From an uncultured Chloroflexia bacterium (GTDB lineage: Bacteria; Chloroflexota; Limnocylindria; Limnocylindrales; CSP1-4), in assembly GCA_963780375.1 (NCBI GenBank), contig CAWABV010000008.1, positions 1,002,052 to 1,066,051 on the forward strand: DNA of 64,000 bases. The letters run 5' to 3'. The notes under the pieces are model-generated. The model saw nothing but the letters and a program-made list of their open reading frames with translations. It was not told where the DNA came from and made no database searches. Numbering within the stretch: position 1 is the first letter of the stretch; the number at the start of each line of letters is the position of its first letter. The position numbers were made by a program, and so were the translations under genes. Below, piece after piece: positions 8,757-28,283 of this stretch.

Positions 8757-8757
8757 C

Positions 8758-10364: not shown

Positions 10365-12608
10365 ATGGCCGCCCGTCTCCAACTGAAGCTAGGGATCGTC
10401 GCCGAGCACGACCGTCTCGACGACTCGCCGGACACGCTGGTCGTCGTCGAACCCAGTGTCGGGTCCGTCGCGCGATCGAAGGGCAACCTGTATCTGCTGG
10501 TCACCTCGCGGACCAGCTCGCGCCACGCCCTGGAGGCGACGCGGCTCGCCGCCGAGACGATCCGGAACGAGTACTACTACGACGAATCGGCGGGTATCCG
10601 TGTCTGCCTGCAGAAGGCCATCGCGACGGCGAACAAGCGGCTCCTGCACCAGGCCGACCGGCTCGCGCTGAAGTCGCCGGAGGGCAACGGTCCGATCGGC
10701 GTGGGCGTCGGGGTCGTGCGTGGCAACGAGATGTACGTCGCCACGGTCGGTCCGGCGGAGGCCTACCTGATCCGCCAGGCACGCCTCTCCACGCTGCCGG
10801 ATCCCCACCGCGAGCGCGGGCTACCGTCGAACGGCCTCGAACCCGAGGTCTGGCGCGGCGAGGTGACCGTCGGCGACTCGCTCGTGCTGATCTCGCCGAA
10901 CATCGTCGCCCGGCTCGGTGCGGACGAGCTCAAGGACGCGATGGTCACGCTCCATCCGCAGTCGGCGATGGAGCACCTCCACCAGCGCTTCAGGGCCGCC
11001 GACGGCTCGGGTAGCGACGGAGCGATCGCGTTCGAGGCGACCGAGGTGGCACCCACCACCCGCGGCCGCTCCCTCGTCCCGGTCAAGCCGGCCGAGCCGC
11101 TCGCCGGTGCGCCCGATCGCTCGCCGATCCCCCTTGCCGATAACGTGCAGGCGGCCGGCGCCGCCGTCGCATCCGCTGCCGACAGCGCCCGGACGGTGGC
11201 CGGGACGGCCTTCGAGCGGACCGTCGCGCGTCTCCATGACCTGCTGCCGCGGCGGCGACCAGCCTATCGCCGGGTCACCCCGCTCGCCTCACGCCGCGAG
11301 ACCCAACGCCGCGCGGCGATCGCCGTCATCGCCCTGCTCGTCGTCGTGGGCAGTCTGGCGATGTCGGTCTGGGCGTTCGGTGGCCGGACGCCGCAGGGCG
11401 CCATCAGCTCGATCAACGCGGGCCAGGCTGCGCTCGACAAGGCGGAGGAGAACCTCGACCTCGTGTCCGGTCCAGGCATCGACCTCGTGAGCGACGATCG
11501 CGACGAGGCGCTCCGGCTGCTCACCGAAGCCTACGGCGAGCTCGACAAGGCGGAGGATGCCAGCGTCAGCTCGCGGGTCATCGATCCGGTCCGGACGAAG
11601 GTCGTCGCGCTCCTGGACCGCGCCTATGGCGTCGTGGACGTGGCCTCGACGCCGCTGTTCCGGTTCAAGCCCGCCCAAGGGGCGGCCGCGTTCGACCTCC
11701 GCACGCTCGTCCGGGGTTACGACGATGCCCCGTATGTGATCGACCGGGCGACCAGGGCGGTCTACCGCGTCGATCTGAAGCGCAAGCGGGCGACCAACAT
11801 CGCCCGAAACGGCAAGGCGATCGGCAGCACGCGGATGGCCACGCCGAGGCTCCTCGCCGTCGGTGGTCGCGATCTGTTGATCCTCGACAGTAAGAACGCG
11901 GTCTGGAAGTGGCGGGCCTCGAACGACGCCGGCAAGGGGACGACCAACCGCGTCCAGGTCAACGGCGCCAGCCAGTGGGGCAACGACATCCTGTCGATCG
12001 GCACGTATCTGCGCGACTCGAGCCGCGGGCTCTACAACCTGTACGTGGTCGACCCCTCGGAGCAGCAGATCCGGGCCTATCCGCCGTCGGCCGACGGGGG
12101 CGGCTTCCCGGCCAAGTCCTCCGCGTGGCTGGCCACGGCCCGCCCGTTGGAGCAGATGACCGGCATGTACATCGACGGCGACATCTACGTCACCGAGAAC
12201 GGCGTCCTCGACCGCTACACCTCGGGCAAGAGCGACGCCTGGGAACCGGGCTCGCCCGGCGACGAACTACTCCGACCGACGACCAGCGAGGTCATCGTCG
12301 CCGGGGCCGGCGCCCGCAACGAGGGTCACGTGTACACGTTCGACCGCTCGAACGACCGGCTCCTTGCGTACGACAAGCGCACAGGCGACTTCGTCGCGCA
12401 GTACCGACTCAAGGATGGCGAAGGCTGGGCGGATCTCCGGGCGATGTACATCATCCCGGGCGTCGAGGACCAGCCCGACCGGCTCATCTGGCTGTCCAAG
12501 GATGCCGTTAACCAGGCCGTGCTCCAGGCCGCTCCCGAGACCGCTGGCGCGTCCCCGTCGCCGTCCGGTGGCGCCAGCGGCTCGCCGTCGACCGCGCCCA
12601 GCCCCTGA
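10365..12608 (+). CDS. PstP-like bitopic membrane protein: cytoplasmic degenerate PP2C-like domain, one TM helix, extracytoplasmic beta-propeller-like repeat domain
   Basis: The N-terminal region aligns to PP2C motifs, but the metal-binding residues are replaced: LYLLVTSRTSS at the DGMGG position and GVGVGVVRGNEMYVATVGPAEAYLIR at the GTT...VANVGDSRAYLLR position. A TM helix AAIAVIALLVVVGSLAMSVWAF follows. The C-terminal repeats read AVYRVD.., LYNLYVVD.., MYIDGDIYVTENGVLDRY, HVYTFDRSNDRLLAYD. Confidence 0.5.
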   Translation: MAARLQLKLGIVAEHDRLDDSPDTLVVVEPSVGSVARSKGNLYLLVTSRTSSRHALEATRLAAETIRNEYYYDESAGIRVCLQKAIATANKRLLHQADRLALKSPEGNGPIGVGVGVVRGNEMYVATVGPAEAYLIRQARLSTLPDPHRERGLPSNGLEPEVWRGEVTVGDSLVLISPNIVARLGADELKDAMVTLHPQSAMEHLHQRFRAADGSGSDGAIAFEATEVAPTTRGRSLVPVKPAEPLAGAPDRSPIPLADNVQAAGAAVASAADSARTVAGTAFERTVARLHDLLPRRRPAYRRVTPLASRRETQRRAAIAVIALLVVVGSLAMSVWAFGGRTPQGAISSINAGQAALDKAEENLDLVSGPGIDLVSDDRDEALRLLTEAYGELDKAEDASVSSRVIDPVRTKVVALLDRAYGVVDVASTPLFRFKPAQGAAAFDLRTLVRGYDDAPYVIDRATRAVYRVDLKRKRATNIARNGKAIGSTRMATPRLLAVGGRDLLILDSKNAVWKWRASNDAGKGTTNRVQVNGASQWGNDILSIGTYLRDSSRGLYNLYVVDPSEQQIRAYPPSADGGGFPAKSSAWLATARPLEQMTGMYIDGDIYVTENGVLDRYTSGKSDAWEPGSPGDELLRPTTSEVIVAGAGARNEGHVYTFDRSNDRLLAYDKRTGDFVAQYRLKDGEGWADLRAMYIIPGVEDQPDRLIWLSKDAVNQAVLQAAPETAGASPSPSGGASGSPSTAPSP

Positions 12609-13936: not shown

Positions 13937-14728
13937 TCAGCCGCCGGCGTCGATGATCGGCCGGCCGCGGCGCATCGCCCGCGACCGATTCGCCCACATC
14001 GCGAGCCGCGTGCGCCAGAAGTCGCGAACGGCCCGAAAGACCACCTGGAGTTTCGCGCCAGTGGGCGACCCGGCTGTGCGTGGATAGTGGGGGACGCCCA
14101 CCTCGACCACCGACCGACCGTCGGCCCGTAGCCGGATCAGGAGCTCCGCGGAGAAGAAGGCTCCGTCGGACTCGACCCGGACGCCCGCCAGCGCCTCGCG
14201 CCGGAACAGCTTGGAGGCGCAGTCGACATCGGTGACCGTGAGACCGAAGAAGAGCCGGTTGGCCAGCCGGTACGCACGGGCATACAGCGTCCGAACGAGG
14301 GGATCGGCGCGCTTGATCCGATACCCGACCACGACGTCGGGCTGATCCGCGCCGGCCAGCCGCTCGGTCAGGCGGCCGAGATCCTCGACACGGAACTGGC
14401 GATCGCCGTCGGTGAACGCGACGAGCTCGTAGCGTGCCGCGCCGAAGCCCGACCGGAGGGCGGCGCCGTAGCCGAGGTTGGTCGGATGGTGGACCGCCCG
14501 GACGACGCCCGGATGTGTAGCCGTCAGCTGGTCGGCGAGGGCCCGTGTCCGATCGCGCGAGCCGTCATTGACGGCGATGATCTCGAACGTCTCGGCGATG
14601 ACCGGCAGGCTCTCGAGCGCCTCCTCGACGAGGCCCTCGATATTCGCCTCCTCGTTATGCGCCGGGAAGAAGAACGAGAGGCGCGCGACGCGTCCGGGTC
14701 CCGTCGGTGCCGCCACGGTGGCCGTCAC
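13937..14728 (-). CDS. GT2 polyprenol-phosphate glycosyltransferase (dolichol/polyprenol-phosphate mannose/glucose synthase-like)
   Basis: LSFFFPAHNEEANIEGLVEEA...IIAVNDGSRDRT...NLGYGAALRSGF...FTDGDRQF is the GT-A DXD/ED architecture typical of Ppm1/DPM1/GtrB. Confidence 0.85.
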   Translation of the reverse strand: MTATVAAPTGPGRVARLSFFFPAHNEEANIEGLVEEALESLPVIAETFEIIAVNDGSRDRTRALADQLTATHPGVVRAVHHPTNLGYGAALRSGFGAARYELVAFTDGDRQFRVEDLGRLTERLAGADQPDVVVGYRIKRADPLVRTLYARAYRLANRLFFGLTVTDVDCASKLFRREALAGVRVESDGAFFSAELLIRLRADGRSVVEVGVPHYPRTAGSPTGAKLQVVFRAVRDFWRTRLAMWANRSRAMRRGRPIIDAGG

Positions 14729-16227
14729 TCGCCGGCCTCACGACTACGGATGACGCGACCGAGCAGGCTCGTATCGAAGCCGTCGATCTGCTCGACGACG
14801 TAGCGCTCGGCGATGCCGCGGATCTCCGATGGCTCGATGCGGATCACATAGACCGGCCGGGTCGGCAGGAATCGGTCGATCACTTGGTAGACGTCTCCCA
14901 GGTCGAGGTCGAGGCGGGTACGGTCGTCGATGATAAAGAGGTCGCGCCGTCGACCCTCGATCACTTGCGCATACCAGAGTGGCGTCGAGTAGCTCCACCA
15001 GCTCACGATGACGGCATTCGGCTCCATACGCGCGAGCGTCTGGTCCAGCCAGCGGGGCGCGGAGAGATCGCCGCTCCGGTCGACGACCCGGTAGCGATCC
15101 CCGAGCTCGATCGTGGTCGGGACCAGGAGGACGATGGCGAGGACGACCACGACCACCGGTTGCATCCGGCGGCGGCCCTCGTCGTCGAAGCCCCTCCCGG
15201 CCAGCCGGGCGATCCCCTCCGCGAGGGTCGCGAGCCACGTCCATCCCATCAGGACGGGAACGACGTAATAGCGGTCGATCATGGCGTTGACGTAGGACGC
15301 CGCGAAGAAGCAGGTGAGCGCGACCGCCGAACCGGTCAGCAGCGCATACCGCGGCTGCCGGAGCACGGTGACCGCGAACGCGAAGGGCAGGAGGACGGCC
15401 AAAGGCCCGAACGCGTCGATCGTGCGGAGCGCGAGGTCACCAGCCTTGAACGCGAGGTCGTCGAACGGGCCGAGAAGGGCTCCGCGGAATTGCTCCGCGA
15501 GCGCGATGTACCAGAAGCCATCCCATGTGTCGGGACGGCCGTATATCAACGGCGCAGGGAATGGCCCGGCCCGGAGCGGCAGCTCGAGGTAGACGAGGGC
15601 AGTGGTGAGGACGGCGGCGACCAGACAGCCGACGACGAGGCGCGGCCGCCAGAGCATCTCGGGATCGACCACTGCGACATAGAGGAGGATCGGCGGCAGG
15701 AAGAGCAGGGTCAGCGAGTGGTTGCCGGCCGCGAGCCCGAATACGACCGCCGCCGCCATGAGGGTCCGGTCCCGTCGCCCTTCCTCCCAGGCCACCAGGA
15801 GTCGCAGCAGGACGGCGCTCAGTGCGAGGTGCAGGGCGTGCGCCTCCGCCTGGGTACCGACCTTCCAGACGATGCCCGTAAGCGCGAGGCCGAGCCCCGC
15901 CATGACCCCGAGAAGGGCCGATCTCGTCAGCGCCCGGACGAGGTCGACCGTGACCGCGGCGGCCGCCGCTACGCACAGGCCCGCGAACAGGTTCATGCGG
16001 AACGCCGGGTCGCCGAACGGGCTCAGGAGGATGTTCGCGACCCACGCGAGCAGGACGTAGGTCGGGAAGCCGGTCGGATGGGCTGTGCCGAGCACCGGCG
16101 CGACGACCTGCAGCTCGGCGGTATCCCAGTACCCGATGCCCGGCAACATGGCGAGCCGCTCGGCGATGAACGCCACGATGCCGACCGCCAACGGGGGCAG
16201 CCACCGCCCGGCCGCCCCGCTCACCAT
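14725..16227 (-). CDS. DUF2723-family polytopic membrane glycosyltransferase (GT-C fold, TMEM260-like)
   Basis: The complement ATG at 16227 sits 1 nt after the stop of the upstream GT-C gene. The signature reads GIGYWDTAELQVVAPVLGTAHPTGFPTYVLLAW, with many TM helices. Confidence 0.65.
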   Translation of the reverse strand: MVSGAAGRWLPPLAVGIVAFIAERLAMLPGIGYWDTAELQVVAPVLGTAHPTGFPTYVLLAWVANILLSPFGDPAFRMNLFAGLCVAAAAAVTVDLVRALTRSALLGVMAGLGLALTGIVWKVGTQAEAHALHLALSAVLLRLLVAWEEGRRDRTLMAAAVVFGLAAGNHSLTLLFLPPILLYVAVVDPEMLWRPRLVVGCLVAAVLTTALVYLELPLRAGPFPAPLIYGRPDTWDGFWYIALAEQFRGALLGPFDDLAFKAGDLALRTIDAFGPLAVLLPFAFAVTVLRQPRYALLTGSAVALTCFFAASYVNAMIDRYYVVPVLMGWTWLATLAEGIARLAGRGFDDEGRRRMQPVVVVVLAIVLLVPTTIELGDRYRVVDRSGDLSAPRWLDQTLARMEPNAVIVSWWSYSTPLWYAQVIEGRRRDLFIIDDRTRLDLDLGDVYQVIDRFLPTRPVYVIRIEPSEIRGIAERYVVEQIDGFDTSLLGRVIRSREAGE

Positions 16228-17624
16228 CCGAGGATGCGACCCCAGATGACGCCCCACGCGTTGACCATCACGGACAGGACGATGAGGCCCATCGCCAGCG
16301 GCATCGCCCAAGCCGCTCGTCGCGCTCGATCGACGAGCCAGGAGAAGCCTATGGCTACGAGGACCAGCGCGAACGGGAGGACATCGTTACTGAACCGATA
16401 GCCGAACTGGACCCAACCCTGGCTGAAGTGCATGAGGTTCGCCACGGAGACCAGCGCGATCGCGAGCAGGGCGGCGACGACGATGCGGCGCCTCCTGCGG
16501 TCGAACCAGGCCGGGATCGCGAGCAGGAGGGCCGGTGTCGTCAGCAGCACGCTCATGCCTGTGTCTCGAGGCAGCGCCAGCGGGCAGTCGGGGTCGAAGA
16601 GCCCGCGCGTCCCACCGGGCGCCGCGCACAGCGGCCGATCGATCGTGCCGAGCGTGTCCTGGAAGCGCTCCGGCATGAGCGTGGGCGTGGACAGCAGCAT
16701 GATCGCGAGGTTCTGGGGCAGGTACCTGGGGTCCTCCGCGGTCCAGTCCGGGTGGTAGCCGAGACGGGTGTACGCCCGGGACTCGAGCTGGTAGAGGTGG
16801 TCGTAGGCCGGGTGGAAGACGTGGCCGGTCGAGACGACGTTGTAGATCACCAGCGCCGCCACGGGGATCGCCGCGCCGAGCGCGACGGCGACGCCGCGCC
16901 GTCGCCAGTCCCGGCCCGGCGCAACGAGGACGAAGAACGGCAGGGCGAGGATCACGGTGAGCCGCGCCGTCGCCGCCACGCCGATGAGGAAGCCGTTCAT
17001 GACCGCGCTCGGGAGGGTCCGGCGCCCCGCTCCACCCGAGGCTCCATCGCCGCCCCGCGCCGCAGCGTCGCCCGGGGCTCCCTCACCGCCCAGCGCCAGG
17101 CCGACCGCCAGCATCGTCAGCCCGACCGCCACGATGTGCGCCTGGTACCAGGTCGTCGTGTTCTGCGCCGCGTACCAGAAGGCGGTCCCGAAGGCGAAGA
17201 CCACCGTCGTACCGGCACGGACGACGATCGAGACGCCGAGCCGGCCGATCATCCACCAGCACAGCGCGACGTCGACGGCCGCGAAGATCGTGAAGATCAA
17301 CTGGTCATCCGCCTGGAGACCGAAGGCGGCCACGAACGGGATCACCACGAGGGCCGGCAGCGGCGGGAAGGGGATCAGGCCGCGCTCGCTGCCGGCCACT
17401 CGTCCGATGGGCAGGACGTCCTGGAAGAGGTAGTTGCCGAATCGTTCTGCCGTGTTCAGTACTGGATAGCGGATGCCGGCCTGACCCTCGAGGAACGCGG
17501 CGGCCTGCCACACGAAGTGGTCGTAGTAGCGCGGGACGAAGGTGAGTCGAAAGACCGCGAACGCGGCTACCGCGAGCGCGATCCCCGCCAGCGGGACGAG
17601 GACCGACATCGCCCGCGACGTCAC
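16221..17624 (-). CDS. GT-C superfamily membrane glycosyltransferase (ArnT/PMT_2/GT87-like)
   Basis: Polytopic, 467 aa, with the first-loop acidic motif ...NYLFQDVLPIG... It forms a 4-nt-overlap chain with the downstream DUF2723 and GT2 genes. Confidence 0.6.
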   Translation of the reverse strand: MTSRAMSVLVPLAGIALAVAAFAVFRLTFVPRYYDHFVWQAAAFLEGQAGIRYPVLNTAERFGNYLFQDVLPIGRVAGSERGLIPFPPLPALVVIPFVAAFGLQADDQLIFTIFAAVDVALCWWMIGRLGVSIVVRAGTTVVFAFGTAFWYAAQNTTTWYQAHIVAVGLTMLAVGLALGGEGAPGDAAARGGDGASGGAGRRTLPSAVMNGFLIGVAATARLTVILALPFFVLVAPGRDWRRRGVAVALGAAIPVAALVIYNVVSTGHVFHPAYDHLYQLESRAYTRLGYHPDWTAEDPRYLPQNLAIMLLSTPTLMPERFQDTLGTIDRPLCAAPGGTRGLFDPDCPLALPRDTGMSVLLTTPALLLAIPAWFDRRRRRIVVAALLAIALVSVANLMHFSQGWVQFGYRFSNDVLPFALVLVAIGFSWLVDRARRAAWAMPLAMGLIVLSVMVNAWGVIWGRILGW

Positions 17625-17650
17625 TACTCGGGGCCGGGGGTCGTCTCGGG

Positions 17651-20600
17651 GTGCCTGTGCTACGCTCAGATCAACCTTCCACGCTCGTGCAGGAGCCGTT
17701 CTACCCGGTGACTGGCCCCGATCCCGGTGCGTACGAGCGAGGCACGGGAGCGCCGCCTCGGTCGACCGGGATCCAAGGAGCCGTCGGCGTCGTCCTGATC
17801 GCCCTCGCTCTCGGACTCGCCATCCGGCTCACCCTTTTATACCTGCTCCCCGGTTCGGGCTTCGGGCCCGACCTGGCGTCGTTCCGTTTCTGGGCGAACG
17901 ACCTGGCGACGAACGGCCTGCACGGTTTCTACGAGCGTGACTTCTTCCACGACTACACGCCCGGTTACCTGTATGTCCTGTGGCTGGTCGGCACGGTCGG
18001 CAAGGCCATCGGCGGCATCGGTGACCTGATCAAGATCCCGCCGATCATCGCCGACGTCGGCATCGCCTATCTCGCCTGGTCGATGCTCCGCGAGCTCGGC
18101 GTCCGCGACCGCTTGGCTGTGCTGACCGCGCTGGTCGTGATGCTGAACCCGATCTTCTGGTTCGACAACGTGATCTGGGGCCAGGTCGACTCGTTCGGCG
18201 TGCTGTTCCTGCTGCTCGGCCTGCGCTCGCTCTGGCGCGACCAGCCGGAACGCGCAGCGATCTTCGGCGTCATCGCCGCCGTGATCAAACCGCAGCTCGG
18301 TATCCTGCTGCCGGTGATCGCGGTGGTCACCATCCGCCGTGCATTGCGACCGTCGCCGAAGGACCCGGCGTCGATCTCGGCGGTCGACCCGATCCGGCGA
18401 CTCGAGGCACAGACCGGCCACCCGATCCGGATCGTCACCACCGTCCTCGCGGGCTACATCACCGCGCTCATCCTCTGCCTGCCGTTCGGATTGACGGTGC
18501 TGCAGGTCATCCCGAACCCGCCCTTCGTCGCCTCCGGCCTGCTCGAGCAGATCGCCCTCGCCGGCGGTGGTTACCCGTACCTGACCGTCAACGCCTACAA
18601 CACCTGGGCACTCGTCCCGAGTGATCTCGGGATCAGCCTCGCGGCGTCTAGCCAGTGGGTCTGTGACGCCTCGACCACGCCGGCCGACCTGTGCGGAACC
18701 GGGGTCGTCCAGTTCGGGGCGGTCCCGGCGGTCGTCGTCGGCGCCGTCCTGCTGGTCGTGGCCATCCTCACCGTCCTGTGGGCGATCTGGCGGAACCCGG
18801 ACCGCCTCACGATCACCGTCGGGCTGGCCATCATCGCTCTGGCCTTCTTCATGGCCCCGACCCGCGTCCACGAGCGCTACGGCTTCCCGTTCTTCGCTAT
18901 CGGGGCAATGCTCTTCGCGATCTCGCCGCGCTGGCGGGTCGCGTATGTGGTCCTCAGCATCGCGACGTTCGCGAACATGTATGTCGTCCCGACGACGATC
19001 TATCCCCCGACCGATCCGACCACCAACCCGTTACGCGACTGGTTCGCCATCGGCCCCGAGATCCGCTCGCAGGCCGGCGTCACGATCGTCGCGGTCATGC
19101 ACACCGGGGCCTCGATATGGGCATGGCTCCAGCTGCGCCGCTCGGCACGGGAACGGCTCGAGGAGGAGCTCTACACGGCCTCGCGCGAGTCGCTACCCGA
19201 TCGCGTGCCGGGCCGCGCCGTGGCACCCGGCGTCGCGCCAGGAGCCGTCGGCCTGTCGGTGGCCGCATCGACGGCACAGCCGACCACGCTGCCGACCTGG
19301 TCCGAGCCGGCGCGGTTCGAGGAGGTCGGCGTGACCGGCTGGATCTCGGACCGGTTGCGGGCCGCACCCTTCCGCGCGGATCGCAGTCGCTCACTGGCGA
19401 GCGAGGGCGGCGGTCGCTTCGACCGTCTCGACGCGTGGCTGCTCGTCGTGCTGATCCTGGCCACGCTGGGGATCCGACTGTTCCGCCTGGCGGAGCCATA
19501 CCAGATGCACTTCGACGAGGTCTACCACGCGCGGACCGCGACGGAGTTCCTCCAGGACTGGCGCTATGGCGAGTCGCATGTCATCTACGAGTGGACCCAT
19601 CCGCATCTCGCCAAGTACGCGATGGCGGCCGGACTCGTGCTGTGGGGCGGGGACCACGTCCAGGCGACGGCCGAGCTCGGCACGCCGGTCCGCGCTGTCG
19701 CGATCGAGCCACGCCGGGAGGACGGGACGGCACGGGCCGGCGAGCGGTTGCACATCGCCACGGGCGAAGAGATCCGGACCGAGGATCTCCGGACACGCCG
19801 CACGATCGCGGAGACGCCGGCACCGGGAGTCGGCGCGCTCACCGTCGACTCGACCCTGACCCGCCTCGTCCTGGGCGCGGACGACGGCACGATCTCGACC
19901 ATCGACCTCACGGGTATCGGCATCGACGGTACCGACAGCACCCCGGTCCGGTTGGCGACCGTCCCGCATCCGGTCGACCATCTCCTGGTCGCCGACGACG
20001 GCACGATCGTCGCCGCCTCCGACATCGACGTCACGACCATCGATGGCACCTCCGGCGACATCCTCGGCCACGCCGAGTTCGACGGCGTCGCCGACCTGGC
20101 CCCGGGCGGCTCGGGCCCGGTGCTGCAGGGCGACCCGAGCGCTATCGACGACCCGACCGCGGTCGCCGAGACACTCGCCTCGCTCATCGGCGGCGACCCG
20201 CTCGACTATGAGTCGAGGATCACGAGGGCGGAGCCCGGGGCGTCGGTCCTGTTCGGTAGCCCGGGGAGCGGTGAGACGCGGACGTCGGTCGACGACGCCA
20301 TCACCGACGGTCGGCTGCCTGGGATCGAGATCGTCGACCTGCCGCGGATCGCGGTGGCGACGTCCGAAGGCGTCTCCTTCATCGATCCGGCGAGCGCGGC
20401 CACGACGTCGTCGGTGCCGCTCGACGGTGGCGCGCACGGGTTGGCGTTCGTGACGGGGATCGACGACACCCAGTTGTACGTCTCGAGCGGATCCCGTGAG
20501 GACCCGACGTACCACGTGCTCAAAGTGAGCGGCGATAAGGCGGCCAACGGTCCGATCGACCAAGGGAGCCACCCGCTGCCCGGTCTCGGCTCGCAGGTCG

Positions 20601-23044
20601 CCTACGACGAGGCCACCATGCACATCCACATCCTGGGCCTCGCGCCGCCGGAAGAAACGGCGGGATCCGGTGACCGCTGGACCGTGTACGTGATCCAGCC
20701 GCGCGCCGACGACCCCGCCGTGTATGCCGACGCGGCCCTCCCGCCCGACTTCACGCCGGTCGACATGGCGATGGACGTCGAGCCGCAGTACCAGACCGAC
20801 GACCGTGAAGACCTGCTGGTGTTCGACGGCGATGGCACCGTCGCCTCCATCGATACCGGCTCGCACGCCTTCGCGTGGCGCTTGCCGGGCGTCCTGGCCG
20901 GCGTCCTGATGGCCGCCAGCCTGTACGTCCTGGCCCGGATCCTGTTCGCGCGACGGAGCGTGGCCGTCGCCGTCGCCGCGTTCGTGATCCTCGACGGGAT
21001 GTTCTTCGTCCAGTCGCGCATCGGGATGAACGATGTCTACGTCGGCCTGTTCATCGTCGCGGCGTACACGGTCGTCGCCGCCATCTGGACGGGCTGGTGG
21101 CGTGGCCGCTTCGCGTTCTGGATCGCGATGCCCATCATCGGCCTGCTCCTCGGGCTGGCCTTGGCCTCGAAGTGGGTCGCGGCCTACGCGATCGGCGCGC
21201 TCATCCTGTTGCTGCTCATCCGCAGCGCCCTCGGGCGCATCGTGGCGATCCTCGGACTCATCGCGATCACCGGCGCGCTCGGCTACCTCGCGATGGCCGG
21301 CCAGTCGTTCGGCAACCTGCCGTTCCTCGTGATCATGATCGGACTGACGATCCTGGCCGTGGTCGTCGCGGTCTTCCATCCGATCGCCTGGACCGACGAG
21401 GAGATGTGGCTGGCGTTGCTGGCCCCGGCTGCCGCAGGTGCCGCCCTGTTCTTCGGGACTCTGGCGCTCGGCGAGCTGAACACGGAGATCGTCATCGGGC
21501 CCCTGTCGGTGACGCCGTTGCTGGCGGCCATCGCCACCTCGCTCGGCTCGGTCGTCGTCTATGCCGCGTTCCGTGTCGGCGGGTCACTCGGCTACGGACC
21601 GCTCGCGCCGCCGATCCGACCGGGCGATCCGGAGTGGGTCCTCGACCCACCCGGCGATGCACCGACCGGCTGGCTGCGACCCGGCTGGGCGTTCGGCATC
21701 CCGATCGTGTGGGCGACGATCTGCGTGCTCGCCGTCCCAGTCGGCGTATATGTCGTGAGTTACCTGCCATGGGCGGCGATAGAGAACCATCAGTTGTGGC
21801 CGGGCTACCCGGCCGGCCACAGCGGACAGACGCTCGTCGAGCTCACCCGCCAGATGTACGACTACCACAACGGGCTGACCGCGCCGCATCCCGCGTCGTC
21901 GCCATGGTGGGCGTTCCCGTTCGATCTCAAGCCCGTGTGGTTCTACCAGGAAGGCTTCGCCGGATCGACCAGCGCCGCGATCTACGACTCCGGGAACCTG
22001 GTGATCTGGTGGCTCGGGATCGCCGCTCTGATCTTCGTCTCGATCATGGCCTACCGCCGGCGGTCGCCAGCGCTCGCGCTCATCGCGATCGGCTTCGCCG
22101 GTCAGTGGGTGCCGTGGGCGCGGATCGACCGGGCAGCCTTCCAGTATCACTACTACACGGCGCTGCCGTTCCTGATCCTCGCCCTGGCATACCTCGTGGC
22201 GGAGCTGTGGCACGGGGCGTCACGCCGGACCTGGATGTGGATCCGCATCGCCGCCGCAGCGGCCCTCATCGGACCGGCCGTGATGTGGCTGTTCTCGCGC
22301 CCGCTGTGCGTCCTGGTGGGCGTCACGATCGTCAATCCCGGATCGCAAGCCTGTCCGGCCGTCATCCCGGACTTCGTCCTCACGATCCGGACCCTGGCGC
22401 TGCTCACGCTCCTCGTCGGTGGCGGGATCCTCCTCTGGCTGTGGCTCGCGCGCATGCAGCAGCGGGAGGGCGGTCTGGGCGACGCGCGGTCGAGCCTGCC
22501 CCTGCTCGGGGTGGCGTTCGGCATCGGCGTAGCCTCCCTGCTCCCGGAAACGCCACTCCTGACGTGGCGCGGGATCCCGGTCGAGCCGGTCGCGCTGCTC
22601 GTCCTCCTGCCACTGCTCTATCTCGCCGGGCAGGTGGTGGCGGCCCGCGACGCTCGCCGGTTCGTGGTCGGCATCGGCGTGGCCGTGACGGCGTGGTTCG
22701 TGCTCTGGTACCCGAACCTCTCGGCCTTGCCGTTGCCGTCGACCGTGGTCAACGCCTACCAGGGCTTCCTGCCGACCTACCTGTATGCCTTCCAGTTCCC
22801 CGTGAACACCGCTGCACGGCCGGCGACACCGTTGCTCAGCCCGGTCCCGATCGCGCTGACCATCGCCCTCGGCCTGACCTGCCTCGTGGTCGCCTACTCG
22901 GCCTCGGTCTGGCGGCTGGCACTAGCCGAGTCTCGAGCGAATGCGGCCTCGGGCTCTGGCCCGTCCGGTCCGGGTGCTGCTGCCGGCTCCTCGGCGATGG
23001 ACGGTGGGGCAGAGGGCCTGGCCCGGACCGGTGGGGGCGCCTGA
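17651..23044 (+). CDS. giant (1797 aa) fused membrane glycosyltransferase: N-terminal DUF2029/GT87 (PimE-like) domain, then a PMT-family (GT39-like) domain carrying a ~400-aa beta-rich extracytoplasmic insertion
   Basis: N-terminal domain: FGPDLASFRFWANDLATNGLHGFYERDFFHDYTPGYLYVLW, which is PimE/GT87-like. Second domain: LGIRLFRLAEPYQMHFDEVYHARTATEFLQDWRYGESHVIYEWTHPHLAKY, the PMT DE-loop. A soluble repeat-rich insert (GTISTIDLTG..., VADDGTIVAASDIDVTTIDG...) lies between them. More than 25 predicted TM helices. Confidence 0.7.
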   Translation: MPVLRSDQPSTLVQEPFYPVTGPDPGAYERGTGAPPRSTGIQGAVGVVLIALALGLAIRLTLLYLLPGSGFGPDLASFRFWANDLATNGLHGFYERDFFHDYTPGYLYVLWLVGTVGKAIGGIGDLIKIPPIIADVGIAYLAWSMLRELGVRDRLAVLTALVVMLNPIFWFDNVIWGQVDSFGVLFLLLGLRSLWRDQPERAAIFGVIAAVIKPQLGILLPVIAVVTIRRALRPSPKDPASISAVDPIRRLEAQTGHPIRIVTTVLAGYITALILCLPFGLTVLQVIPNPPFVASGLLEQIALAGGGYPYLTVNAYNTWALVPSDLGISLAASSQWVCDASTTPADLCGTGVVQFGAVPAVVVGAVLLVVAILTVLWAIWRNPDRLTITVGLAIIALAFFMAPTRVHERYGFPFFAIGAMLFAISPRWRVAYVVLSIATFANMYVVPTTIYPPTDPTTNPLRDWFAIGPEIRSQAGVTIVAVMHTGASIWAWLQLRRSARERLEEELYTASRESLPDRVPGRAVAPGVAPGAVGLSVAASTAQPTTLPTWSEPARFEEVGVTGWISDRLRAAPFRADRSRSLASEGGGRFDRLDAWLLVVLILATLGIRLFRLAEPYQMHFDEVYHARTATEFLQDWRYGESHVIYEWTHPHLAKYAMAAGLVLWGGDHVQATAELGTPVRAVAIEPRREDGTARAGERLHIATGEEIRTEDLRTRRTIAETPAPGVGALTVDSTLTRLVLGADDGTISTIDLTGIGIDGTDSTPVRLATVPHPVDHLLVADDGTIVAASDIDVTTIDGTSGDILGHAEFDGVADLAPGGSGPVLQGDPSAIDDPTAVAETLASLIGGDPLDYESRITRAEPGASVLFGSPGSGETRTSVDDAITDGRLPGIEIVDLPRIAVATSEGVSFIDPASAATTSSVPLDGGAHGLAFVTGIDDTQLYVSSGSREDPTYHVLKVSGDKAANGPIDQGSHPLPGLGSQVAYDEATMHIHILGLAPPEETAGSGDRWTVYVIQPRADDPAVYADAALPPDFTPVDMAMDVEPQYQTDDREDLLVFDGDGTVASIDTGSHAFAWRLPGVLAGVLMAASLYVLARILFARRSVAVAVAAFVILDGMFFVQSRIGMNDVYVGLFIVAAYTVVAAIWTGWWRGRFAFWIAMPIIGLLLGLALASKWVAAYAIGALILLLLIRSALGRIVAILGLIAITGALGYLAMAGQSFGNLPFLVIMIGLTILAVVVAVFHPIAWTDEEMWLALLAPAAAGAALFFGTLALGELNTEIVIGPLSVTPLLAAIATSLGSVVVYAAFRVGGSLGYGPLAPPIRPGDPEWVLDPPGDAPTGWLRPGWAFGIPIVWATICVLAVPVGVYVVSYLPWAAIENHQLWPGYPAGHSGQTLVELTRQMYDYHNGLTAPHPASSPWWAFPFDLKPVWFYQEGFAGSTSAAIYDSGNLVIWWLGIAALIFVSIMAYRRRSPALALIAIGFAGQWVPWARIDRAAFQYHYYTALPFLILALAYLVAELWHGASRRTWMWIRIAAAAALIGPAVMWLFSRPLCVLVGVTIVNPGSQACPAVIPDFVLTIRTLALLTLLVGGGILLWLWLARMQQREGGLGDARSSLPLLGVAFGIGVASLLPETPLLTWRGIPVEPVALLVLLPLLYLAGQVVAARDARRFVVGIGVAVTAWFVLWYPNLSALPLPSTVVNAYQGFLPTYLYAFQFPVNTAARPATPLLSPVPIALTIALGLTCLVVAYSASVWRLALAESRANAASGSGPSGPGAAAGSSAMDGGAEGLARTGGGA

Positions 23045-24195
23045 GGGACCGCCGCCTGGAAGCCGTCGGGTAGCGAGCCTGATGCGGCCAGGCGCCGGAT
23101 CACGAAGCCGTAGTAGTCATCGACCTTGGCCGTGACCCGCGCCCACGAGAACTCCTCGGCACGGACGCGACCCGAGGCGCCCATCTGTTCGCGCAACGCG
23201 GGGTCGCGGAGCAACTGGTCGATGGCCGTCGCCAGCTCACGTGGCTGCCGGGGCGGGACGAGCAGCCCCTCGCGGCCACGCCGCAGGACGCCCTTGTAGC
23301 CGTGGATGTCCGAGGCCACGATCGGTGTGCCGGCAGCCATCGCCTCGAGCAGGACGATCCCGAAGGATTCGCCGCCAGTGGCGGGTGAGGCGTAGACGTC
23401 GGCCGTCTTATAGAGCTGGGCCTTCTCGTCGTCTGACACTCGACCGAGGAACTCGACGCCATTGAGCCCGCGGGTCGCCACGTAGCGGCGCGCCTCGCGC
23501 TCCTGCGGCCCGGATCCGACGATCAGCAGCCTCGATCGGCCGCCCGTGCGGCGCAGGATGCGGTGCGCCTTGAGCAGGTCGAGCAGCCCCTTGCGCGGCT
23601 CGTGACGGCCCACGAACAACACGTTGGGCGTGCCGTCCTGCCAGCGCGCGATCGGCACGGCCGTCGCGAACCGGGCGACGTCGACGCCGTTGGGGATGAC
23701 CTTGTAGTCGCCCGGGAAATAGCGGTCGATGAAATGACGCGCCGCGGCGCTGACGGCGATGCGGCCATGCAGCCGAGCCGCGTACCCGCCCAGCGCCCGG
23801 CTGCCGAACTCATAGGACGGCGAGAAACCGGCGTAGGCGTGGAACGTCGCGATGTTGACGCTCGACGACTCGCGCAGCAGGAAGAGCGAGAGGAACGGCA
23901 CGAACGGCTCGTGGAAATGCAGGACGTCGAACCGTTCGCGCTCGAGCATGTCGTCGATCTGGGTCAGATAGCGCGGCGAGAAGGTCAGCGTCCCGACCGA
24001 GGCGTTGATCGGGACCGAGAAGCCGACGCCGAGCCGGATGATGTCGCCCTCCGACGCCCGTTGGGGGCCGTGGCTCGCGGTCAGGATGCGGACGTCATGG
24101 CCGCGCTGGCGGAGCCCCTGGTACAGGAACTGGACGTGCTGGGCGACGCCACCGCTGGCGGGGTAGATGTACGGGCAGACGAGGCCGACCTTCAT
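22894..24195 (-). CDS. pimA: GT4 glycosyltransferase, PimA-like (phosphatidylinositol mannosyltransferase candidate)
   Basis: The complement ATG at 24195 gives MKVGLVCPYIYPASGGVAQHVQFLYQGLRQRGHDVRILT. The C-terminal GT-B signature reads ASPATGGESFGIVLLEAMAAGTPIVASDI. It is last in the PI-pathway operon, and its 3' end overlaps the giant GT gene by ~150 nt. Confidence 0.8.
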   Translation of the reverse strand: MKVGLVCPYIYPASGGVAQHVQFLYQGLRQRGHDVRILTASHGPQRASEGDIIRLGVGFSVPINASVGTLTFSPRYLTQIDDMLERERFDVLHFHEPFVPFLSLFLLRESSSVNIATFHAYAGFSPSYEFGSRALGGYAARLHGRIAVSAAARHFIDRYFPGDYKVIPNGVDVARFATAVPIARWQDGTPNVLFVGRHEPRKGLLDLLKAHRILRRTGGRSRLLIVGSGPQEREARRYVATRGLNGVEFLGRVSDDEKAQLYKTADVYASPATGGESFGIVLLEAMAAGTPIVASDIHGYKGVLRRGREGLLVPPRQPRELATAIDQLLRDPALREQMGASGRVRAEEFSWARVTAKVDDYYGFVIRRLAASGSLPDGFQAAVPQAPPPVRARPSAPPSIAEEPAAAPGPDGPEPEAAFARDSASASRQTEAE

Positions 24196-25010
24196 CGCTC
24201 CGCACGTGGTTCGTAATGCGGGGGTCGGGCGCGTCCACCGGGATAGCCGTGGTCGCGGCCCGTGCCGGATCGGCGGATCCGCCCGCTGATCTCGTCGCGG
24301 GCGTCGACCGCTCGTTTGCGGATCTGCTGGCCGAAGACGCCGAATTGGCCGACCGTGCCGTGGAACGAGCCGCCGTGATCGGTCGTCCGCGCCGCGATCG
24401 CCGCGCGCAGGTCGACGGCCACGCTGCCGGGAAAGCTCGTCCAGCCGGCGCCGACCGCCTCGAGTGCATGGGCATCGCTGTTGCCGATCCGGGCCAGCTG
24501 GTGCTCGTCGGCGAAGCGCACGACCCGATCGTGCCACGGCCGCCCGAGCGCCGTCGGGTTGAACGTCTCGATCGCGTCCGGCCGGACCGCTTCGTCGGGA
24601 TCGTCGAGCAGGCGCCGGAGCGCCCAGCCCTGGGCGCACAGCGGGTACGGCACGAGGGGATGGGCGGGGATCGCGATGCCGCCCGCGTCGTGGACATCGG
24701 CGATCGTGCGGCCCAGCGTGCGGAAGGGCTTGATGCGACGCTCGATGAAGAGCGCGAGCAGGTGCCCGCCGAGGGTGGTCACCTCCTCGCCGACGATGAC
24801 GTCGATCGGCAGGCCGCGGTCGCGCGCGATCGCCCGCCCGGCGACCGCTGCGTCGATGCGCTCGTGATCGGTGATGGCGATGAGGTCGAGCTGACCCATC
24901 GCGGCGACGTGCTCGATGATCGACACGACGTCGGCGATGCCGTCCGAGGCGACCGTGTGGATGTGGAGGTCGGCTCGCCCCGCGTGGGTGGCCTCGTCGG
25001 CCGCCGTCAT
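24192..25010 (-). CDS. PHP-domain metal-dependent phosphoesterase
   Basis: The complement ATG at 25010 (MTAADEATHAGRADLHIHTVASDGIADV...) shows the PHP His motifs HIHT, DHE, HP. It has ATGA overlaps with both neighbours. Confidence 0.7.
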   Translation of the reverse strand: MTAADEATHAGRADLHIHTVASDGIADVVSIIEHVAAMGQLDLIAITDHERIDAAVAGRAIARDRGLPIDVIVGEEVTTLGGHLLALFIERRIKPFRTLGRTIADVHDAGGIAIPAHPLVPYPLCAQGWALRRLLDDPDEAVRPDAIETFNPTALGRPWHDRVVRFADEHQLARIGNSDAHALEAVGAGWTSFPGSVAVDLRAAIAARTTDHGGSFHGTVGQFGVFGQQIRKRAVDARDEISGRIRRSGTGRDHGYPGGRARPPHYEPRAER

Positions 25011-25975
25011 GCGGCCGCCTCGGCCCGATCGTCGTCCGGCGCCACGCCGTCGGCCAGGTCCGGCCAGATCGGGAAGAAGACGGCCCACCATTGCTCGGGC
25101 GCGTCCGCGATGACGCGCTCGAAGATCCGCGCGATCGATGCGGTGGTCGCGGTCGCGCGTTCGCGACGAGATCCCTCGGCGGCGACGTCGACCCGGTCGA
25201 GGCGTCCGATGTAGCGCCCGGGCGTCGTCCGCCGGACCGCGGTCACGTACGCCGGGGCGCCGGTCTCGATGGCGAGCAGCGCCGGACCCAGCGGCAACCG
25301 GGCCGGCGCGCCGAACAGCTCGGTGAGCGTCCCGCCCCCGGTCAGGTCGCGATCGCCGACGAGGCCCACCGGCGTCCCGGCGCGCAGGGCCGCGGTCAGT
25401 TCCCGCCGCGCCTCGCGCAGCCCGACGATCCGGATACCGGCCGCGCCACGCGTCCGGACGAACCAGGCCTGGAGCTCTGGATCGTCGAGCGTCTCCATCG
25501 GCCCGACCGCCTCTCCGACCCGCGACGCGAGGAACAGCGCCGGCAGCTCGAGCGCCCCGAAGTGCAGCCCGACGAAGATCGCCGGTCGACCCGGTGTGAA
25601 CGCGTCGTCGACCGTCTCCGGCGTCTCGACGGCCATCCGCCTGGGGAGCTCCGCCCCGGCGATGGCCGGTGTCCGCGCCACCTCGACGTAGTAGCGGGCG
25701 GCATGCCGGTACGCCAGCCGCACCAGTCGCTCCAGGGCGCGTGGGTCATGCGCCGCCTTCCGGGCCAGCGGCGTACCGCGATCGTTCGCGTCCAGCCACG
25801 TCACGACCCGCGAGAGGTTGCGCCGCGCCTGTGCCGCCCGTTCCGGCGTCATCCGGTACCAGAGGTCGCCGGCGAGCTCCGCCAGCGCCACCAGCGGCGA
25901 CTCGGGGAGATGGCAGGCCAGCCACGAGGCGCCGCGGATGGCACGACCGCGAAGCCGGCGGCCGAGGCGTCGCAC
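25007..25975 (-). CDS. LpxL/HtrB-family lipid acyltransferase (PIM acyltransferase-like), paralog 2
   Basis: The GTG at 25975 overlaps the upstream stop. The PF03279-like region reads ...LSRVVTWLDANDRG...FVGLHFGALELPALFLASRVG...GLVGDRDLTGGG... Confidence 0.7.
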   Translation of the reverse strand: MRRLGRRLRGRAIRGASWLACHLPESPLVALAELAGDLWYRMTPERAAQARRNLSRVVTWLDANDRGTPLARKAAHDPRALERLVRLAYRHAARYYVEVARTPAIAGAELPRRMAVETPETVDDAFTPGRPAIFVGLHFGALELPALFLASRVGEAVGPMETLDDPELQAWFVRTRGAAGIRIVGLREARRELTAALRAGTPVGLVGDRDLTGGGTLTELFGAPARLPLGPALLAIETGAPAYVTAVRRTTPGRYIGRLDRVDVAAEGSRRERATATTASIARIFERVIADAPEQWWAVFFPIWPDLADGVAPDDDRAEAAA

Positions 25976-25977
25976 GA

Positions 25978-27033
25978 TCAGGCGAACTCCGGTGCCGGGC
26001 CAGGGTCTGCGACGCCATCCAGCATGAGGCCGGCTCGCCGCTCGAGGTCGGCCGCCTCGTCCGGCGTCGACGGCCAGATCGGCTTGAAGCTGTACCACTG
26101 GTCGGGCGCTGCCGCGACCGAGGACGCGAGGGCATCGGCGATGGCCTGGGTGGCGCGCTGGAGGTCCGCGGGGTCCGATGACGGCACCTCGATGGCCGTC
26201 GACCACGACACGTGGAACGAGTCGTCGGGCAGCCGGCGGATCGAGATCGGCAGGATCAGTGAACGGCTCTTCGCCGCGAGCGTCGCGGGTCCCGCGGGCA
26301 GCGCCGTCCATTCGCCGAAGAGGCGCACGGGGATCCCATCGGCGCGATAGCCCCAGTCGACGAGCAAGCCGAGGATCTCGCGGCGGCGAAGTACGCCGAA
26401 GATCTCGCGGAGGTTCCGCCACGCGATCAGCTTCACGCCCCAGCCCTCACGCTGGCGACGGAGGATCTCGTAGATCTCGGGGAAGGCGAAATCGTCGGCG
26501 ACCACGCTGATCGGCATGCCGTGATGGGCGATGGCCGCCGCGACCGCCTCGTTGCTCCCGAGGTGGCCGACCGTCAGGATCAGCCCGCCGCCTGGTGCCT
26601 CCTGCCAGATCCGGCGCACCTCCTCGACGTCCAGGTCCGGTGCCAGCTTCGCGACCTGCTCGGGCGGCATCGACGGCAGCCGCATCAACTCGACGAGATA
26701 TCGCCCGTAGCCCATGTAGGCGGCCATCGCCGCCTCGCGGACGCGAGGATGATCGCGCGGCAGCCCTAGGACGTGCCCGAAGTTCCGGTTCGACCAATGG
26801 CGCTTCGTCGGCCAGGCGAGATAGGACAGCTGCGAGAGCCGGCCGATGATCGCCGCGGCCGGCTTGGGCGGCACCGAGGACAGCAGCCACGCCGTGGCGC
26901 GATACCCGAGGACGGCGAGCCGTTCCACGACGCGCGGGCTGGCGCCGCCGCGTCGGTGGGGCGCCTCGAGTCGGCGATCGATGCCGGACGGCTTGGTCGC
27001 GGAGGCCGGCTGCGGACGGTCTCCCGAGGTCAT
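25978..27033 (-). CDS. LpxL/HtrB-family lipid acyltransferase (PatA-like), paralog 1
   Basis: [57 protein letters not shown]...[15 protein letters not shown]. The ATG overlaps the ino1 stop. Confidence 0.75.
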
Positions 27034-28283
27034 GAACCCGCGGTCGTCGGAACTCCCGTACGCGCGCCGGCGAGCTTGCGGAGCTTGCGCGCGGCGGGCT
27101 TCTCTGTGCCGACCAGCGTCTCCGAATCATCGCCGCGGATGAACGCCTCGACCCGCTCACGGCCGACGTCGTCCGGGATCTGGCGCGGCGGGCTCTTCAT
27201 GAAGTAGGCCGATGGGGCGACGAGCGTGCCCGACAGCCCGCGATCGAGCCCGAGCTTGAGGCAGCGGATCGCGTCGGTTATGACGCCCGCCGAATTCGGC
27301 GAATCCCAGACCTCGAGCTTCAGCTCGGCGTTGAGGGGCACGTCGCCGTACGTCGTGCCCTCCATCCGGATGTAGCACCACTTGCGGTCCTGGAGCCACG
27401 GCACGTGGTCGGACGGACCGACATGGACGTTGTCGGCATCGAGCTCGTAGTCGAGCATGCTCGTGACGGCGTTGGTCTTCGAGATCTTCTTCGACTCGAG
27501 GCGCTCGCGCTCGAGCATGTTCAGGAAATCGGTGTTGCCACCGAAGTTCAGCTGATACGTGCGATCGAGGCGAACGCCGCGGTCCATGAACAACCGCGTC
27601 AGGACGCGGTGGCTGATGGTGGCGCCGACCTGGCTCTTGATGTCGTCCCCGATGACCGGCAGGCCTTCTTCGGCGAAGCGCCGCTGCCAATACGGCTCGC
27701 GTCCGATGAACACGGGGATGGCGTTCACGAACGCGACGCCGGCGCGGAGCGCCTGCTCCGCGTACCACTTCGTGGCTTCCTCGCTGCCGACCGGGAGGTA
27801 CGACACCATGACGTCGACCTCACGCTCCTTCAGGATCCCGACGATGTCGGCAGTCTCCCCGGGCGCCTTCTCGATGATCTGGCTCAGGTACTTGCCGAGG
27901 CCGTCATGGACCATCCCGCGCTCGACCGTGACGCCGAGCTTGCCGGTGTGATGGAACACGAACGTATTGTTCGGCTTCGTGTAGATCGCCTCGCCGAGGT
28001 CCTTGCCGACCTTGTTCTTGTCGATGTCGAAGGCGGCGACGAACTCGATGTCGCGCACGTGGTAGCCGCCGAGGTTAACGTGCATCAGACCGGGCACGAA
28101 GTCGTCGTCGTTCGCGTTCTCGTAGTAGTGGCGACCCTGAACGAGGCTGCTCGCACAGTTGCCGACCCCGACGATGGCGACGCGGACCTTGCCATCGCCG
28201 CGCCGCCTGGCGCCAGCCCAGTCATTCGACGGTGTCGAACCGTTCGTGCCGTTCCCGTTCCCGTTCTTGCCGTTCGTGCTCAC
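27030..28283 (-). CDS. ino1: myo-inositol-1-phosphate synthase
   Basis: [18 protein letters not shown]...[29 protein letters not shown]...[22 protein letters not shown] are diagnostic MIPS motifs. Confidence 0.95.

Follow-up and report, generated by a model that had tools for sequence, protein, structure and literature searches.

Which sugar does a bacterium use, and on which acceptor, when it keeps a lipid-sugar synthase next to several membrane-embedded glycosyltransferases? The question is raised by a locus of an uncultured member of Candidatus Limnocylindria (Chloroflexota), located at positions 13937-23044 of a 64,000-nucleotide (nt) stretch of contig CAWABV010000008.1 (hereafter the window, which has ~70% GC throughout and whose positions serve as coordinates below). 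Four genes fill this locus and leave no room for a further one: a family 2 glycosyltransferase (GT2) gene, a gene for a TMEM260-like glycosyltransferase of the membrane-embedded GT-C fold, an orphan gene whose product is also predicted to have this fold, and a giant gene encoding two fused GT-C modules. We consider it fairly likely that these genes encode a lipid-carrier-dependent extracytoplasmic glycosylation system that uses a polyprenol-phosphate sugar, probably mannose, and that most likely functions in protein O-glycosylation.

Candidate donor synthase and GT-C modules

The GT2 protein (13937-14728, minus strand, 263 amino acids, aa) matches Pfam Glycos_transf_2 (PF00535; 89.5 bits, 3e-25), and the profile of its orthologues matches the solved structures of ArnC (8e-16), PfDPMS from P. 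furiosus (1e-13), and GtrB (2e-12). The alignments span residues 12-218 with ArnC and 15-239 with PfDPMS, nearly the whole catalytic domain, and thus run past the nucleotide-binding half into the acceptor (lipid-phosphate) side, whereas with chondroitin, heparosan, and various other GT2 enzymes the alignment stops at residue ~110-130 and so covers just the ~100 nucleotide-binding residues. Because the full-length matches among solved structures are polyprenol-phosphate-sugar synthases only (ArnC, PfDPMS, and GtrB), assignment of the GT2 to this class is well supported at the sequence level. Residues D55 and D107-G-D109-R-Q111 (DxDxQ) are invariant in 26 orthologues, and a transmembrane (TM) scan found no TM helix or hydrophobic segment in the protein. 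Its top NCBIfam models are PpgS, ArnC, PgfS, and a dolichyl-phosphate (Dol-P)-hexose transferase. An initial annotation, made from the sequence without database searches, had described the protein as a Ppm1/DPM1-like synthase of a mannose-type donor; the synthase class stands, while the sugar is not fixed in this way, as no curated equivalog is approached. Mannose, donated by GDP-mannose, is most probably the sugar, judging from the best-assigned consumers in the locus, which are PMT- and TMEM260-type enzymes.

The first of these consumers is the C-terminal module of the giant protein (longest open reading frame, ORF, 17651-23044, plus strand, 1,797 codons). This PMT module starts at about residue 590 and scores above the gathering cut-offs of both PF02366 (PMT; 33.9 bits against 22.7, residues 1071-1190) and PF16192 (PMT_4TMC; 60.7 bits against 32.4, residues 1394-1553). 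Its first TM helix and the first part of loop 1 (19418-19663) contain a DE motif (D622-E623, nt 19514-19519) and a T-H-P-H-L-A-K motif; M619-H-F-D-E-V-Y-H-A-R-T, H650, P651, and K655 are invariant in 15 orthologues. In the PMT core from TM2 onward (20858-22330), which holds the two Pfam regions, R1077, R1123...D1128, and S1173-K1174-W1175 are invariant. The S. coelicolor Pmt carries D113, E114, H159, P161, K164, and R182 in its extracytoplasmic loop 1, with K164 and R182 18 residues apart (PMC8698208). By motif inspection, D622, E623, H650, P651, K655, and R1077 of the giant protein correspond to these six residues respectively, and the invariant residues of the module match ones that are essential or conserved in the S. 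coelicolor enzyme. The region also gave weak matches to the Pmt4 structures 9i5k and 9e61.

The most unusual part of the PMT module is its loop 1. K655 and R1077 are 422 residues apart, vs. 18 for the corresponding pair in S. coelicolor, and an AlphaFold model of the 1,200-aa PMT half is confident only at residues 672-1069 (block pLDDT, the model's own confidence score, mostly 80-93), where a seven-bladed beta-propeller with a small helical sub-domain is predicted (~400 aa, 19664-20857). From this spacing and the fold of the intervening block, we infer that the propeller is inserted in the catalytic loop 1 of the PMT, and would therefore lie on the outer face of the membrane. A search with the propeller alone against 1.84 billion cluster representatives returned 319 hits, of which the full-length ones are ~1,700-1,830 aa long and carry the propeller at the same position; so few matches, with the full-length ones alike in placement, suggest that the domain is specific to the giant protein family. 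Some hits looked like stand-alone PMT-plus-propeller proteins and thus like traces of an unfused ancestor; for the one that was checked (P0364) this reading was rejected, since it derives from a split gene call, with the same gene order and a 471-aa N-terminal ORF just upstream.

The second consumer is the middle gene of the minus-strand unit (14725-16227, 500 aa), which the initial annotation had assigned to DUF2723. This family, now named TMEM260-like (PF11028), is indeed matched at 72 bits against a cut-off of 24.2 (7e-20), and the cryo-EM structure of human TMEM260 (9rql) is matched at 1.3e-16 over residues 25-435. Behind its GT-C core, the protein has a C-terminal extracytoplasmic region that is Rossmann-like. 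In human TMEM260, D52 and H67 bind the donor, D441 is the proposed catalytic base, and a TPR domain recognises the acceptor peptide (bioRxiv 10.64898/2026.03.17.711096). D35 and H50 of the TMEM260-like protein align with D52 and H67 and are both invariant among its orthologues. Bacterial homologues of DUF2723/TMEM260 are without an assigned function and have been mentioned just as ‘distant homologs in bacteria’ (PMC10214176).

The two other modules are assigned less closely. The N-terminal module of the giant protein (17708-19150, residues ~20-500) is GT-C-like with multiple TM segments, and is separated from the PMT module by a charged linker of low conservation (19151-19417, residues ~501-589), which has no TM segment and a poor consensus. 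Its match to GT87 is just above threshold (26.2 bits, cut-off 25), and Alg6_Alg8 is matched at E 0.003; GT87 is weakly matched by 16 of its 25 orthologues (best 6e-6). Some giant orthologues are labelled ‘Gpi18-like mannosyltransferase’ by the Joint Genome Institute, and a profile search of the module found no match in the PDB. D74 after TM1 and H100-D101-Y102 are invariant. At the other end of the giant protein is an extension of ~240 aa (22331-23044, residues ~1561-1797), which includes a low-complexity tail. It has ~4-5 extra TM helices according to the TM scan, with invariant columns at 1687-1717, is conserved among orthologues, and carries a strongly conserved motif (Y-P-N-x-S-A-L-P-L-P...Y-Q-G-x-L-P-T-Y-L-Y-A-F-Q-F-P); it has no family match.

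The orphan protein (16221-17624, minus strand, 467 aa, start possibly ATG 17609) has no sequence match in the PDB, either as a single sequence or as a profile, and a Pfam match to GT87 was found at threshold in the window copy only (1 of 26 orthologues overall). Its model has the GT-C fold, with ALG12, PMT, ArnT, and STT3 as structural neighbours ahead of PimE, and with ArnT and AftB among the top ones. An invariant Asp35 immediately follows its TM1, and the other GT-C modules have conserved Asp residues as well (D35 in the TMEM260-like protein, D74 and D622 in the N- and C-terminal modules of the giant protein). We rejected the possibility that the modules are recent paralogues, as no significant profile-profile match was obtained: hhalign gave probabilities of 0.4% and 0.2% for the orphan protein vs. 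the DUF2723 family and the N-terminal giant module respectively, and 2.6% for that module vs. the DUF2723 family. The count of three GT-C glycosyltransferases in the initial annotation is right for proteins, which together hold four modules, and its description of a giant GT-C fusion was correct. Most of its domain assignments stand: Glycos_transf_2 and DUF2723 were recovered, and the giant protein matches PMT and PMT_4TMC above their cut-offs. GT87 is marginal, and the orphan protein has no reproducible family.

Proposed mechanism, gene organization, and distribution

In the system that we propose, the soluble or peripheral GT2 would load polyprenyl phosphate with a sugar taken from a nucleotide sugar at the cytoplasmic face of the membrane, as inferred from its family. 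The charged lipid would then be flipped across the membrane, a step for which the locus has no GtrA-like flippase gene, and the four GT-C modules in three proteins would consume the lipid-linked sugar on the outside. The C-terminal PMT-type module of the giant protein, with its DE motif intact, would O-glycosylate Ser/Thr residues of exported proteins, and the beta-propeller in its catalytic loop 1 may act as an acceptor-binding platform, similar to the MIR domain of eukaryotic PMTs and the TPR domain of TMEM260. The GT87/ALG-like N-terminal module, the TMEM260-like protein, and the orphan GT-C may either add to this first sugar or act on different acceptors in the envelope. To our knowledge, every characterised member of the PMT and TMEM260 families transfers mannose from a polyprenol-type phosphate carrier to protein. 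Since the families that pass their thresholds clearly (PMT/PMT_4TMC and TMEM260-like) are thus mannose- and protein-directed, protein O-mannosylation is favored.

Several observations weigh against this proposal. The GT2 is far under every curated NCBIfam equivalog cut-off (PpgS, 59 against 370 bits; ArnC, 53 against 529; Dol-P-hexose transferase, 45 against 375), so that no equivalog fixes its sugar, and it is as near to ArnC (Ara4FN) and PpgS (N-acetylgalactosamine, GalNAc) as to DPMS. The actinobacterial Pmt equivalog NF058602 scores 26.8 on the giant protein against a cut-off of 800, with only the 4TMC region aligned; the model of the giant protein is unreliable in its TM part (pLDDT 30-60), and the propeller is placed relative to the active site by motif order only. 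ALG6 and ALG8, which are glucosyltransferases using Dol-P-glucose, are weakly matched by 13 of the 25 N-terminal modules. In the TMEM260-like protein, an invariant Ser412 is found opposite the proposed catalytic base D441, in an alignment that is weak at this point but kept in register by the E-G-x-R-x-D...D stretch behind it. There is no TPR acceptor domain either, the protein stopping at residue 500 after the Rossmann-like region; its acceptor is therefore not predictable from human TMEM260. There is no flippase gene in the locus, and a GT2 gene is absent locally from 4 of the 69 loci compared below.

Part of this evidence would suit a different sugar or target, with the GT2 making polyprenol-phosphate glucose, polyprenol-phosphate GalNAc, or an aminoarabinose-type donor, and the GT-Cs decorating a wall polysaccharide, an S-layer protein, or a lipid, as in the Gtr, Arn, and PpgS/Rv3779 systems. 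PpgS and ArnC are the top curated matches of the GT2, ahead of the Dol-P-hexose transferases, and ArnC is its nearest solved relative; the ALG6/ALG8 matches of the N-terminal modules and the presence of ArnT and AftB among the top structural neighbors of the orphan protein point the same way. All of these scores, however, are far under their family cut-offs and do not discriminate between sugars, whereas PMT_4TMC and TMEM260-like, both clearly above threshold, are mannose-transferring families. The locus also has neither a GtrA-type flippase gene nor arnA/B/D-like sugar-modifying genes. We regard such an alternative as rather improbable.

Returning to the proposed protein O-glycosylation system, the organization of the locus speaks to whether its genes work together. 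An ORF listing recovered all four ORFs at the coordinates that had been given in the initial annotation, in the described arrangement of three overlapping minus-strand genes facing a divergent giant gene. A codon-position GC test gave a GC content of 0.84-0.89 at third and ~0.5 at second positions, and this strong third-position bias indicates that the four ORFs are real genes. In the minus-strand unit, the orphan gene comes first, the TMEM260-like gene is in the middle, and the GT2 gene is last. The ATG of the TMEM260-like gene at 16227 overlaps the stop codon of the orphan gene (16223-16221) by 7 nt, and the GTG start of the GT2 gene at 14728 overlaps the stop codon of the TMEM260-like gene by 4 nt (GTGA). 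Start/stop overlaps of this kind are the usual mark of translational coupling, and the three genes thus appear to form one translationally coupled unit. The consensus of the giant protein orthologues starts at residue V20 of the longest ORF, so GTG 17708 is probably the start of the giant gene, whose product would be ~1,780-1,797 aa depending on the start. The divergent spacer (17625-17707, between the three-gene unit and the giant gene) would then be about 85 nt, vs. 26 nt with the longest ORF. No sigma-70-like promoter match was found in this intergenic region, for which the sigma-70 model is uninformative in Chloroflexota, and promoter and terminator scans gave no informative signal.

The fusion of the two modules in the giant protein is present at full length in more than 120 cluster representatives, including all of the 120 best database hits, the named ones of which are metagenome-assembled genomes (MAGs) of Chloroflexota or Candidatus Limnocylindrales. 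When one genome per species was scanned, relatives of the giant gene turned up in 342 species genomes. Among 80 fetched loci, 78 are from records titled as Chloroflexota-type, mostly Limnocylindria; the two exceptions are titled as Patescibacteria group (L001) and Verrucomicrobiia (L045). The order of genes encoding rhomboid protease, nuclease, GT2, DUF2723, orphan GT-C, giant protein, GT4, PHP, two acyltransferases, and Ino1 still holds in loci whose giant protein is only 47% identical. Local gene content was tallied over 69 assessable loci. All three small genes are present in 39; the orphan GT-C is absent from 11, and the DUF2723 gene is absent from 6 and matched only partially in 4. The GT2 gene is missing locally in the 4 loci mentioned above, 4 more have other partial matches, and a single one (L064) lacks both small GT-Cs and has the GT2 gene directly beside the giant gene. 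The GT2 and the giant protein form the core of the proposed system, and the two small GT-Cs, as the most variably present genes of the region, are accessory.

In four loci (L012, L027, L044, and L059), the DUF2723 gene is reduced to fragments upstream of the giant gene (e.g., residues 403-500), which suggests that some lineages are in the course of losing this accessory GT-C, but could alternatively reflect frameshift errors in long-read MAGs. Apparent in-frame DUF2723-GT2 fusions were seen in three loci, two of which are ORF-extension artefacts. In the third (L005, 7060-7180, minus strand), the two frames are continuous with no stop between them, which would give a GT-C-GT2 fusion. This locus is from the ‘MFD’ MAG series, which we take to consist of nanopore, i.e., long-read, assemblies; the continuity may just as well be due to an indel error, and the case was not used.

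The same distribution could be read as that of functionally independent neighbors, clustered through vertical inheritance of a block beside the replication genes and supplied with donors made elsewhere. Synteny in the class extends over the whole block from dnaN to a major facilitator superfamily (MFS) transporter gene, the small GT-C genes vary in their presence, and 4 loci have no local GT2 gene. Against this, overlapping stop and start codons couple the orphan GT-C, TMEM260-like, and GT2 genes, and systems of this type canonically place a donor synthase beside the GT-Cs that use its product. In L064, moreover, the GT2 gene is still beside the giant gene despite the loss of both small GT-Cs, which counts for a functional link. 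We find independence of the four genes very hard to credit.

The neighboring PI/PIM-type operon and replication genes

The locus is flanked by nuclease and rhomboid protease genes and by genes for the synthesis of phosphatidylinositol (PI) and PI mannosides (PIM). The latter form a minus-strand operon, assigned by Pfam, which consists of a CDP-alcohol phosphatidyltransferase of the PI-phosphate (PIP) synthase type (28280-~28960), an inositol-1-phosphate synthase (Ino1, 27030-28283), two LpxL/PatA-type acyltransferases (25978-27033 and 25007-~25987), a PHP-domain phosphoesterase (24192-25091), and, as the last gene, a GT4 (22894-24198, start ATG 24198). The GT4 matches Glycos_transf_1 (2e-40) and Glyco_transf_4 (3e-22) in Pfam and generic GT4 models only in NCBIfam. 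Both acyltransferases have the PIM acyltransferase PRK07920 as their best NCBIfam match (133 and 124 bits, under the cut-off of 209), and the phosphatidyltransferase is closest to archaetidylinositol-phosphate synthase (142 against 180) and PIP synthase (133 against 170). As had been described, the 3′ end of the ‘pimA’ of this adjacent operon overlaps that of the giant gene, by 151 nt (22894-23044), the name PimA resting on context only; the overlap is convergent and its length varies among genomes. The tails of both proteins encoded here are of low complexity (Ala/Gly/Pro/Ser-rich), and the last residues of the giant protein (G-L-A-R-T-G-G-G-A) are nonetheless conserved among orthologues.

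The PHP gene overlaps the start of the GT4 gene by 7 nt and is itself conserved in 50/50 related loci. When bacteria make PI via PIP, a PIP phosphatase is required, and the only one yet identified is the PgpA-family BT_1525 of Bacteroides (PMC9246714). The PHP protein is a candidate for a non-orthologous PIP phosphatase.

Given this neighborhood, the two loci had been proposed to form an integrated pathway, in which PI and acylated PIMs are made inside the cell, the GT2 makes polyprenol-phosphate mannose, and the GT-Cs extend the PIMs to a lipomannan-like lipoglycan outside. The likeliest modules for this extension would be the orphan GT-C and, in the giant protein, the N-terminal module with its GT87/ALG/Gpi18-like features. 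A full PI/PIM-type operon (PIP synthase, Ino1, two PatA-like acyltransferases, and GT4) abuts the giant gene and is present in all 50 loci with full flanks, the N-terminal module weakly matches GT87, the family of PimE and MptC, and the Gpi18 of the label on some orthologues acts on a PI-anchored glycolipid. This adjacency, however, is not specific. The window also encodes dnaA, dnaN, and a recF-like gene (5762-9924), and the locus thus adjoins replication genes. This position explains why the block that starts with dnaN and takes in the PIP synthase gene is syntenic throughout the class. As dnaN, recF, a 747-aa gene, and the nuclease gene are as syntenic as the PIM genes (50/50), the position of the operon is no specific evidence for a shared pathway. 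The operon and the giant gene are convergent and so are not one transcription unit. GT87 is matched no higher than about its gathering threshold, and by a single orthologue in the case of the orphan GT-C; PimE is a weaker structural neighbor of that protein than ALG12, PMT, ArnT, and STT3; and the solidly assigned modules (PMT and TMEM260) are protein-directed in all characterised cases. Literature searches found no report of lipoglycans in uncultured Limnocylindria. We therefore do not favor the integrated pathway from PI through PIM to lipomannan, which was drawn from adjacency, and hold a lipoglycan function to be unlikely. Where the initial annotation had left the choice between lipomannan-like glycans and protein O-mannosylation, the PMT and TMEM260 matches favor the latter, the former being possible but unsupported. 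The implicit mycobacterial framing of that proposal also does not suit the host, which belongs to Candidatus Limnocylindria and not to Actinobacteria.

The term ‘island’ used for the locus was likewise misleading: a horizontally acquired genomic island was rejected, as GC content and skew are uniform across the window and the locus is inside a core syntenic block beside dnaA, dnaN, and recF. The 747-aa ORF (10365-12608, plus strand), in place in 50/50 loci, has no Pfam family and a faint PP2C-phosphatase-like NCBIfam match. Beyond the PI/PIM operon are a sortase-domain gene (32151-33143, minus strand), a trehalose-phosphatase-like gene (33610-34554, plus strand), and the nuo (complex I) operon at about 34.5-49 kb. 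Judging from the sortase, the envelope is probably of the monoderm type and has proteins anchored to the wall, which would be plausible clients of O-glycosylation. Neither a GtrA-type flippase gene nor additional glycosylation genes were found within the window.

Comparison with known glycosylation systems

Work on protein O-mannosylation in bacteria has dealt almost exclusively with Actinobacteria (PMC11727336), and our literature searches found nothing relevant on PIM or O-mannosylation in Chloroflexota/Limnocylindria, nor on this gene clustering, the GT-C fusion, or a propeller-in-PMT architecture. In Limnocylindria, an abundant uncultured soil and freshwater lineage, the locus provides a compact, class-wide set in which a predicted donor synthase is accompanied by a PMT, a TMEM260-like enzyme, and two more GT-C modules. 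At present it is a well-founded annotation-level prediction and not a new principle. The giant protein may be more than this, namely an undescribed O-glycosylation machine of ~1,800 aa, in which an initiating PMT captures its substrates with the propeller and the second GT-C extends the glycan, or else a builder of PI-anchored lipomannan-like glycans; we give this only a small chance. If the second of these were true, mycobacterial-type lipoglycans would occur in Chloroflexota and PIM/LM-type (LM, lipomannan) envelope chemistry would extend beyond Actinobacteria.

A close template is the actinobacterial pair of Ppm1 and Pmt (GT39), encoded by SCO1423/SCO3154 in S. coelicolor and Rv2051c/Rv1002c in M. 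tuberculosis, in which a GT2 lipid-sugar synthase likewise has a GT-C of the PMT family as its partner. Ppm1 has no TM helices in its catalytic domain, nor does the Limnocylindria GT2 have any, and the actinobacterial Pmt shares with the giant protein the DE motif of loop 1 and the conserved H, K, R, and D residues. The genes are scattered in Actinobacteria but adjacent in Limnocylindria, where the PMT is moreover fused behind a second GT-C, has a 400-aa propeller in loop 1 and a multi-TM extension at its C-terminus, and is far from the curated Pmt family (26.8 against 800).

The three-component systems (GtrA/GtrB/Gtr GT-C, ArnC/ArnE-F/ArnT, and PpgS/Rv3789/Rv3779) are similar in having a GtrB/ArnC-class GT2 beside GT-Cs, to one of which it is translationally coupled in Limnocylindria. 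They differ in their small GtrA- or ArnE/F-type flippase gene, which the Limnocylindria locus does not have, and in their single GT-C module, as opposed to four; GtrB and ArnC also have a C-terminal TM hairpin that is absent from the Limnocylindria GT2. Human TMEM260 resembles the TMEM260-like protein in its GT-C core followed by a Rossmann-like extracytoplasmic domain (the match at 1.3e-16) and in the invariant equivalents of D52 and H67, but is about 707 aa long, vs. 500 aa without a TPR domain in Limnocylindria, where D441 is replaced by Ser.

The mycobacterial PI/PIM/LM system is comparable in its pgsA1-patA-pimA genes, as the neighboring operon combines a phosphatidyltransferase of the PIP-synthase type with PatA-like acyltransferases and a GT4, and in PimE and MptA/B/C (GT87/GT-C), as two of the GT-C modules give weak GT87 signals. 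The Limnocylindria operon differs in its additional ino1, PHP phosphoesterase, and second acyltransferase genes and in curated scores under their cut-offs; the GT87 likeness is marginal, and the link between locus and operon is no more than a synteny common to housekeeping genes.

Every component of the Limnocylindria locus is thus from a known superfamily, and the Ppm1/Pmt-type and Gtr/Arn-type systems are its templates. New in form are three features: the genes are clustered, two GT-C modules are obligately fused, and a propeller is predicted within the PMT catalytic loop. Acceptor domains of such enzymes are the MIR domain in eukaryotic PMTs and TPR repeats in the TMEM260 and TMTC enzymes. 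The propeller in the PMT loop can be considered a natural experiment on how GT-Cs gain acceptor-recognition domains, and would be a third solution besides MIR and TPR.

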